From Escherichia phage Pu-Krd-SF3, in the sequence record PQ249397: a stretch of DNA of 64,000 nucleotides. The stretch is one strand, 5' to 3'. How positions within the stretch are numbered: position 1 is the stretch's first letter; every line of letters begins with the position of its first letter. Both the position numbers and the translations under genes were made by a program. This document shows, one piece after another, positions 10,441 to 10,803 of the stretch. Below the pieces are notes generated by a model, which was given only the letters and a program-made list of their open reading frames with translations, was not told where the DNA came from and made no database searches.

Positions 10441-10803
10441 ATGAAAGCATATCAAATTCTTGAAGGCACACATAAAGGTACTATTTATTTTGAAGACGGT
10501 ATTCAAGCACGAATTATTGTCTCTAAAACCTTTAAAGAGGACTCTTTTGTAGACCCAGAAATTTTCTACGGTTTACATGCCCGTGAAATTGAAATTGAAA
10601 CACAACCTACAGTTAAAATTGAAGGTGGTCAACACCTGAACGTAAACGTTCTGCGTCGTGAAACTCTGGAAGATGCAGTTAAGCATCCGGAAAAATATCC
10701 GCAGCTGACCATCCGTGTATCCGGTTATGCAGTTCGCTTTAACTCTCTGACTCCGGAACAGCAGCGCGACGTTATCGCTCGTACCTTTACCGAGAGTCTG
10801 TAA
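10441..10803 (+). CDS. autonomous glycyl-radical cofactor, GrcA/YfiD-like (T4 Y06I homologue)
   Basis: C-terminal half [57 protein letters not shown] matches the GrcA/PFL glycyl-radical domain, including the RVSGY glycine loop. Confidence 0.9.

Follow-up and report, generated by a model that had tools for sequence, protein, structure and literature searches.

Does a small glycyl-radical protein carried by a virulent Escherichia phage serve the pyruvate formate-lyase (PFL) of its host, the anaerobic ribonucleotide reductase of the phage, or something else? The question is raised by a reading frame in Escherichia phage Pu-Krd-SF3 (sequence record PQ249397), of which we analysed a stretch of 64,000 nucleotides, here called the window. 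An initial annotation had taken its product for a spare part resembling the E. coli glycyl-radical protein GrcA (YfiD), had pointed to a glycyl-radical enzyme (NrdD) and its activase (NrdG) in the same genome, and had left the partner of the phage protein open. The features on which the argument turns are as follows:

10431-10436, plus strand: GAGAGG, Shine-Dalgarno sequence of vs.6, read from the sequence; putative role in translation
10441-10803, plus strand: coding sequence of vs.6, ATG-initiated, 120 amino acids plus stop; orthologue of T4 Y06I and phage homologue of GrcA/YfiD
10441-10618, plus strand: phage-type 5′ half of vs.6, residues 1-60, about 33% GC; recognized by GC content, BLASTP and dN/dS
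10619-10803, plus strand: 3′ segment of vs.6, almost certainly host-derived, encoding the structured glycyl-radical domain, 49% GC; recognized by comparison with E. coli grcA DNA
10723-10725, plus strand: codon of G95, the radical-bearing glycine in RVSGYAV; placed by alignments to GrcA and PflB
10789-10805, plus strand: 3′ end of vs.6 (four codons and the TAA stop) with the overlapping ATG of vs.5 (TAATG); aligned to E. coli grcA
28676-30493, plus strand: nrdD, anaerobic ribonucleotide reductase (NF006732, 896 bits); context only
30490-30960, plus strand: nrdG, NrdD activase (TIGR02491, 199 bits); context only

Several comparisons assign the product of the gene, Vs.6, to the GrcA group. The sole domain recognized in its 120 amino acids was Pfam Gly_radical (PF01228; residues 60-101, E = 2.2e-18), and the best-matching solved structure in a PDB sequence search was E. 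coli YfiD/GrcA (6OWR, E = 4.6e-42). Against the NCBIfam GrcA model (TIGR04365), residues 20-120 aligned with 154.6 bits; this lies below the equivalog cut-off of 170 bits, because the N-terminal half has diverged, but all other families scored far lower. Residues 61-120 are identical to GrcA 68-127 at 60 of 60 positions, so that the near-identity claimed in the initial annotation for the C-terminal 60 residues proved complete, and these residues cover nearly all of the structured GrcA domain (61-127). The N-terminal half is also detectably homologous to that of GrcA, with a weak but significant BLASTP match to GrcA 1-67 (35% identity over 40 amino acids, E = 2e-6). Both are small stand-alone glycyl-radical domain proteins, although Vs.6 is seven residues shorter, has an N-terminal half only about 35% identical and written in AT-rich phage codons, and is expressed from a phage early/middle unit, whereas grcA is under host control. 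This similarity is far beyond chance and, as judged from its sequence and structural features, Vs.6 belongs to the GrcA/YfiD family of autonomous glycyl radical cofactors (TIGR04365, IPR011140).

The same domain links Vs.6 to PFL itself. About 80% of its last 62 residues agree with PflB 699-760, a shared stretch of 13 residues among them, in the C-terminal glycyl radical domain of the enzyme (about 693-759); in the PDB sequence search, residues 697-759 of PFL (1H16) were matched with E = 4.8e-26. The radical motif of Vs.6, a 10-residue stretch at residues 91-100 that contains RVSGYAV, places G95 opposite GrcA G102 and PflB G734. Whereas PflB is an enzyme of 760 residues, Vs.6 is free-standing, and the PflB C-terminus that it resembles is the part that a spare part replaces.

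The gene occupies a familiar phage locus. Gene order around it is denV, internal protein genes, vs.8, vs.7, vs.6, vs.5, vs.4, vs.3 and regB, and the gene at the same position in RB51 and T4 is vs.6, currently labelled "autonomous glycyl radical cofactor GrcA" in RefSeq. T4 Vs.6/Y06I (UniProt P13316; NP_049730) has the same length and shares 118 of 120 residues, making it the orthologue; it differs from the window's protein at T54P and R73H, and at residue 73 it is the window's copy, not that of T4, that agrees with E. coli GrcA. The GAGAGG ahead of vs.6 overlaps the TGA stop of vs.7 (10430-10432). A promoter and terminator scan of 8400-12200 gave counts no higher than expected from shuffled sequence, and we claim no promoter there; an Rfam scan of the whole window returned tRNAs only, none of them near vs.6. 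Further upstream, a non-coding gap (9387-9563) between an internal-protein gene and vs.8 opens with a hairpin resembling a terminator (9389-9406), after which the GC content is noticeably higher, and vs.8 itself encodes 180 amino acids in the window compared with 219 in T4. Nine tRNA genes are clustered at 555-2012, with a homing-endonuclease reading frame (about 1269-1934) between the eighth and the ninth.

Vs.6 is widespread among phages. Its DNA is 100% identical in three further Escherichia phages (Pu-Krd-SF4, W143 and 310Ecol104PP) and at least 95% identical in 488 phage records. At the protein level, homologues were found in 1,591 phage records from two families, the Straboviridae (T4-like phages of Escherichia, Shigella, Klebsiella, Enterobacter, Citrobacter, Morganella and Aeromonas) and the T5-like Demerecviridae; many of these records already name the product "autonomous glycyl radical cofactor". 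RVSGYAVRF was kept in all nine phage lineages examined. Among eight Tequatrovirus and Mosigvirus copies, seven had no amino-acid change in the C-terminal 60 residues, the exception being T4 with R73H, and dN/dS of the N-terminal half was about 0.1-0.2. A few records depart from the usual arrangement. Salmonella phage Lv5cm matches vs.6 in two places, and in phage vB-Eco-KMB39 the match falls into two pieces annotated as two features, so that some phages may have a duplicated or an interrupted copy. In Morganella phage vB_Mm5 the GrcA-like domain is annotated within a 217-amino-acid reading frame (segment coordinates 1237-1890), as its C-terminal part; the extra N-terminal stretch of about 90 residues may reflect either a real fusion or an annotation that misses an internal start.

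That vs.6 encodes a phage spare part is already known, with in vitro biochemistry in the literature since 2001. In the passages of PMC8683613 that cite Wagner et al. 2001 (BBRC 285:456), YfiD and T4 Y06I each receive a glycyl radical from the PFL activating enzyme (PFL-AE), and each forms a complex with oxygen-cleaved PFL that restores its activity in vitro. The same paper names YfiD and Y06I as the only two validated spare-part proteins and describes two parts of YfiD: residues 1-60, which are disordered and aid the binding and activation of cleaved PFL (cPFL), and residues 61-127, which duplicate PFL 693-759 (PMC8683613). The description of the window's gene as a GrcA-like spare part, in a genome that also has nrdD and nrdG, holds. 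The partner, by contrast, was left more open than it needed to be: for the biochemistry, T4 Y06I acts with PFL activase and cleaved PFL (PMC8683613, in the passages just mentioned), and the question stands only for the benefit in vivo, since our search of the accessible literature returned no deletion, anaerobic-infection or other in vivo study of vs.6. The T4 gene is expressed: its RNA is assigned to the early class and its protein to the middle class, and the protein has thus been detected (PMC9697503 supplement). In the same T4 infection proteome, the intensity given for host GRCA_ECOLI is roughly twice as high in the last column as in the first, the meaning of the columns being unverified (PMC9697503, supplementary file 5). 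T4 nevertheless shuts off host synthesis; peptides from the last 60 residues, which Vs.6 and GrcA share, may have been credited to the host protein.

We propose, with a probability of roughly 0.8, that Vs.6 is a phage GrcA/YfiD that restores oxygen-cleaved host PflB by way of host PflA. Oxygen would cut the PflB of the host at its radical glycine, G734; Vs.6 would bind the damaged enzyme, its C-terminal domain substituting for the lost PflB C-terminus, and resident host PflA would place a new glycyl radical on G95. PFL activity would then return, and with it a fermentative supply of acetyl-CoA (from pyruvate) and ATP for phage production. The activation by PFL-AE and the rescue of cleaved PFL that this scheme requires were seen in vitro with the T4 orthologue and are carried over to the window's protein by its likeness to it. 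T4 stops host transcription and degrades host DNA. The host would for this reason be unable to induce grcA after infection, and the phage would need a copy of its own because of that; Vs.6 would be supplied from the phage early/middle transcript, and the benefit would probably be felt in microaerobic or oxygen-fluctuating infection. A functional analogy is offered by cyanophage psbA, which encodes the D1 protein and is likewise a phage-carried, host-derived copy of a damage-prone component with fast turnover. Both genes would keep host energy metabolism going after host expression is shut off, although the D1 protein and its pathway are unrelated to Vs.6. Several points stand against the proposal: no laboratory requirement for vs.6 is known; its N-terminal half, the counterpart of the part that aids cPFL binding and activation in YfiD, is only about 35% identical to GrcA; and the arrangement of the nrd genes in Aeromonas phage Ah1, described below, hints that some phages, at least, link the gene to anaerobic nucleotide metabolism.

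The last point leads to the phage's own glycyl-radical enzyme. Both nrdD and nrdG are indeed present in the window, as had been reported, with scores far above the curated equivalog (TIGRFAM) cut-offs, and Vs.6 might be radicalized by phage NrdG to replace an NrdD C-terminus lost to oxygen cleavage. Besides this shared genome, the idea draws on Ah1, in which the vs.6 homologue lies between nrdG and nrdC, overlapping nrdG by 4 nt, within a block nrdD-nrdG-vs.6-nrdC-nrdH (segment coordinates 367-3947), and on Nolan et al. 2006, who suggested a role in nucleotide metabolism, a guess from a shared Pfam domain (PMC1524935). In T4 and in the window, by comparison, the distance is about 18 kb; in the window, nrdD and nrdG lie downstream of vs.6 in a different gene cluster. 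We read the Ah1 block as probable co-regulation of anaerobic functions, not as a shared mechanism. The proteins themselves speak against service to NrdD. Vs.6 could not be aligned locally with the NrdD C-terminus of the window (the highest score, 27, fell in an unrelated region), and it lacks both the NrdD radical loop RRTCGYLG and the cysteine pairs ahead of it, which we take to be the Zn-binding site of NrdD. Nor did any NrdD chain appear among the PDB sequence matches at E ≤ 0.001, whereas the Vs.6 domain has the same sequence as that of host GrcA and shares about 80% of its residues with PflB. The T4 protein, moreover, works in vitro with PFL and PFL-AE (PMC8683613, where it cites Wagner et al. 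2001). A phage that carries the homologue without any NrdG provides a further argument: the T5-like Salmonella phage Kenya-K34 encodes a Vs.6 homologue (53% identity; segment 26360-26725) and an NrdD (50% identity; segment 3122-4897), and tblastn found no NrdG or PflA-like gene in it even at E = 10. A host activase must therefore serve the Vs.6 homologue there, and Kenya-K34 presumably relies on host activases for both its GrcA-like protein and its NrdD. The sequence evidence thus favours host PFL over phage NrdD as the target, and we regard service to NrdD as very improbable. As a separate matter of classification, the absence of similarity to the cysteine-pair segment and RxCGY loop of NrdD rules out Vs.6 as an NrdD-type glycyl domain. 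The nrdD gene of the window is uninterrupted over 605 codons, and no group I intron turned up when the whole window was scanned with Rfam; T4 nrdD carries such an intron. A homing-endonuclease gene lies just upstream of nrdD, at 27863-28600.

If host formate-lyases are the target, the action of Vs.6 might extend beyond cleaved PflB, with the domain supplying a radical to full-length inactive PflB or to TdcE and tuning fermentative flux whether or not oxygen has done damage. The identity of the phage domain with that of GrcA is compatible with such a role, and the roughly three DNA matches to the segment per E. coli genome fit grcA together with paralogous formate-lyase genes. Vs.6 may have further partners, for example TdcE or full-length PflB, but this reading would extend our main explanation instead of forming a true alternative to it, and as an account of what the gene is for we consider it unlikely. 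It is also hard to believe that vs.6 is host DNA carried along passively and of no benefit to the phage. Its 3′ half hardly differs from host DNA and no laboratory phenotype is known, but some 1,600 phage genomes in two families have kept the gene, its radical motif was intact in every one of the nine lineages examined, and both halves are under purifying selection. It is also expressed (PMC9697503 supplement) and was one of eleven reading frames of unknown function that all T4-like genomes in a 2006 comparison had in common (Nolan et al.; PMC1524935). Repair of oxygen-cleaved host PflB through host PflA thus stays our preferred reading.

At the DNA level, vs.6 is a mosaic. Nucleotides 179-363 of the gene (10619-10803, 185 nt) share 98.4% identity with grcA in the top-scoring E. 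coli genomes listed, with a perfect run of 172 nt at 10619-10790, and in every one of the 5,426 complete genomes searched the best match to this segment has an identity of 95-99%. The 5′ half gave no DNA-level match to E. coli grcA, and GC content rises from 0.33 to 0.49 over the boundary. With the 363-nt gene as query, only nt 179-363 aligned and no E. coli genome matched at 99% or more. Over the same stretch, grcA of other enterobacteria is only 85-91% identical to that of E. coli; the donor of the 3′ half is, to judge by these identities, specifically Escherichia. The same sharp 5′ boundary was present in T4, RB51, Shfl2 and four Mosigvirus phages, whose 3′ halves are 95.7-99.5% identical to E. 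coli. We found no earlier description of this mosaic in the literature searched.

Synonymous divergence gives the segment a relative age. Between the window and Mosigvirus, dS was 1.2-1.9 (saturated) in the flanking genes vs.7 and vs.5, 0.35-0.45 in the 5′ half of vs.6 and 0.07-0.17 in its 3′ half. The 3′ half must be much younger than the split of the two phage genera, because its dS is far lower than that of the flanks. Phage 3′ halves differed from E. coli grcA by a dS of 0.02-0.20, compared with 0.40 between E. coli and Citrobacter and 0.94 between E. coli and Salmonella for the 3′ half of grcA. The direction of transfer was from host to phage, since the composition of the segment is that of the host and E. 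coli grcA follows the normal pattern of enterobacterial divergence. It is nearly certain that the 3′ segment is recent and host-derived, and vs.6 as a whole has the look of an ancient, divergent GrcA homologue in which host sequence has recently taken the place of the 3′ half. Either more than one conversion from the host took place, or one conversion was spread by phage-phage recombination. More tentatively, and with odds that we would put somewhat short of even, the 3′ half may have been overwritten recently, perhaps repeatedly, by conversion from the chromosomal grcA of E. coli, keeping the spare part matched to the PFL of the current host while the 5′ half evolves separately.

The few differences from the host lie at the very end of the gene. 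Over 10619-10803 the window's copy departs from E. coli at only three positions (10791, 10794 and 10797), all synonymous and all in the last four codons. Together they give rise to GAGAG, a putative Shine-Dalgarno sequence for vs.5, shortly ahead of the vs.5 start, which overlaps the vs.6 stop (TAATG), and other phages have related variants at the same last codons of vs.6. DNA-level tracking of the host is shown for the E. coli phages only. For phages of Klebsiella, Citrobacter, Morganella and Aeromonas and for T5-like phages, the best matches of the 3′ halves reached only 68-86% among 80 sampled bacterial grcA loci, a sample without K. pneumoniae grcA. Klebsiella, Citrobacter and other phages likewise have a higher GC content in the 3′ half than in the 5′ half, and a protein motif that reads LLDAVE or LEDAVK follows the host loosely, not perfectly.

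The gene adds nothing new in kind; what gives it some value is the question of its benefit in vivo and its DNA mosaic, an unusually clear case of recent recombination from host to lytic phage and as such of modest interest. On the practical side, peptides common to Vs.6 and host GrcA can confuse the proteomics of infected cells. Overall, virulent enterobacterial phages carry what would be a repair part for a fermentation enzyme of their host, which suggests adaptation to oxygen-fluctuating, gut-like conditions.
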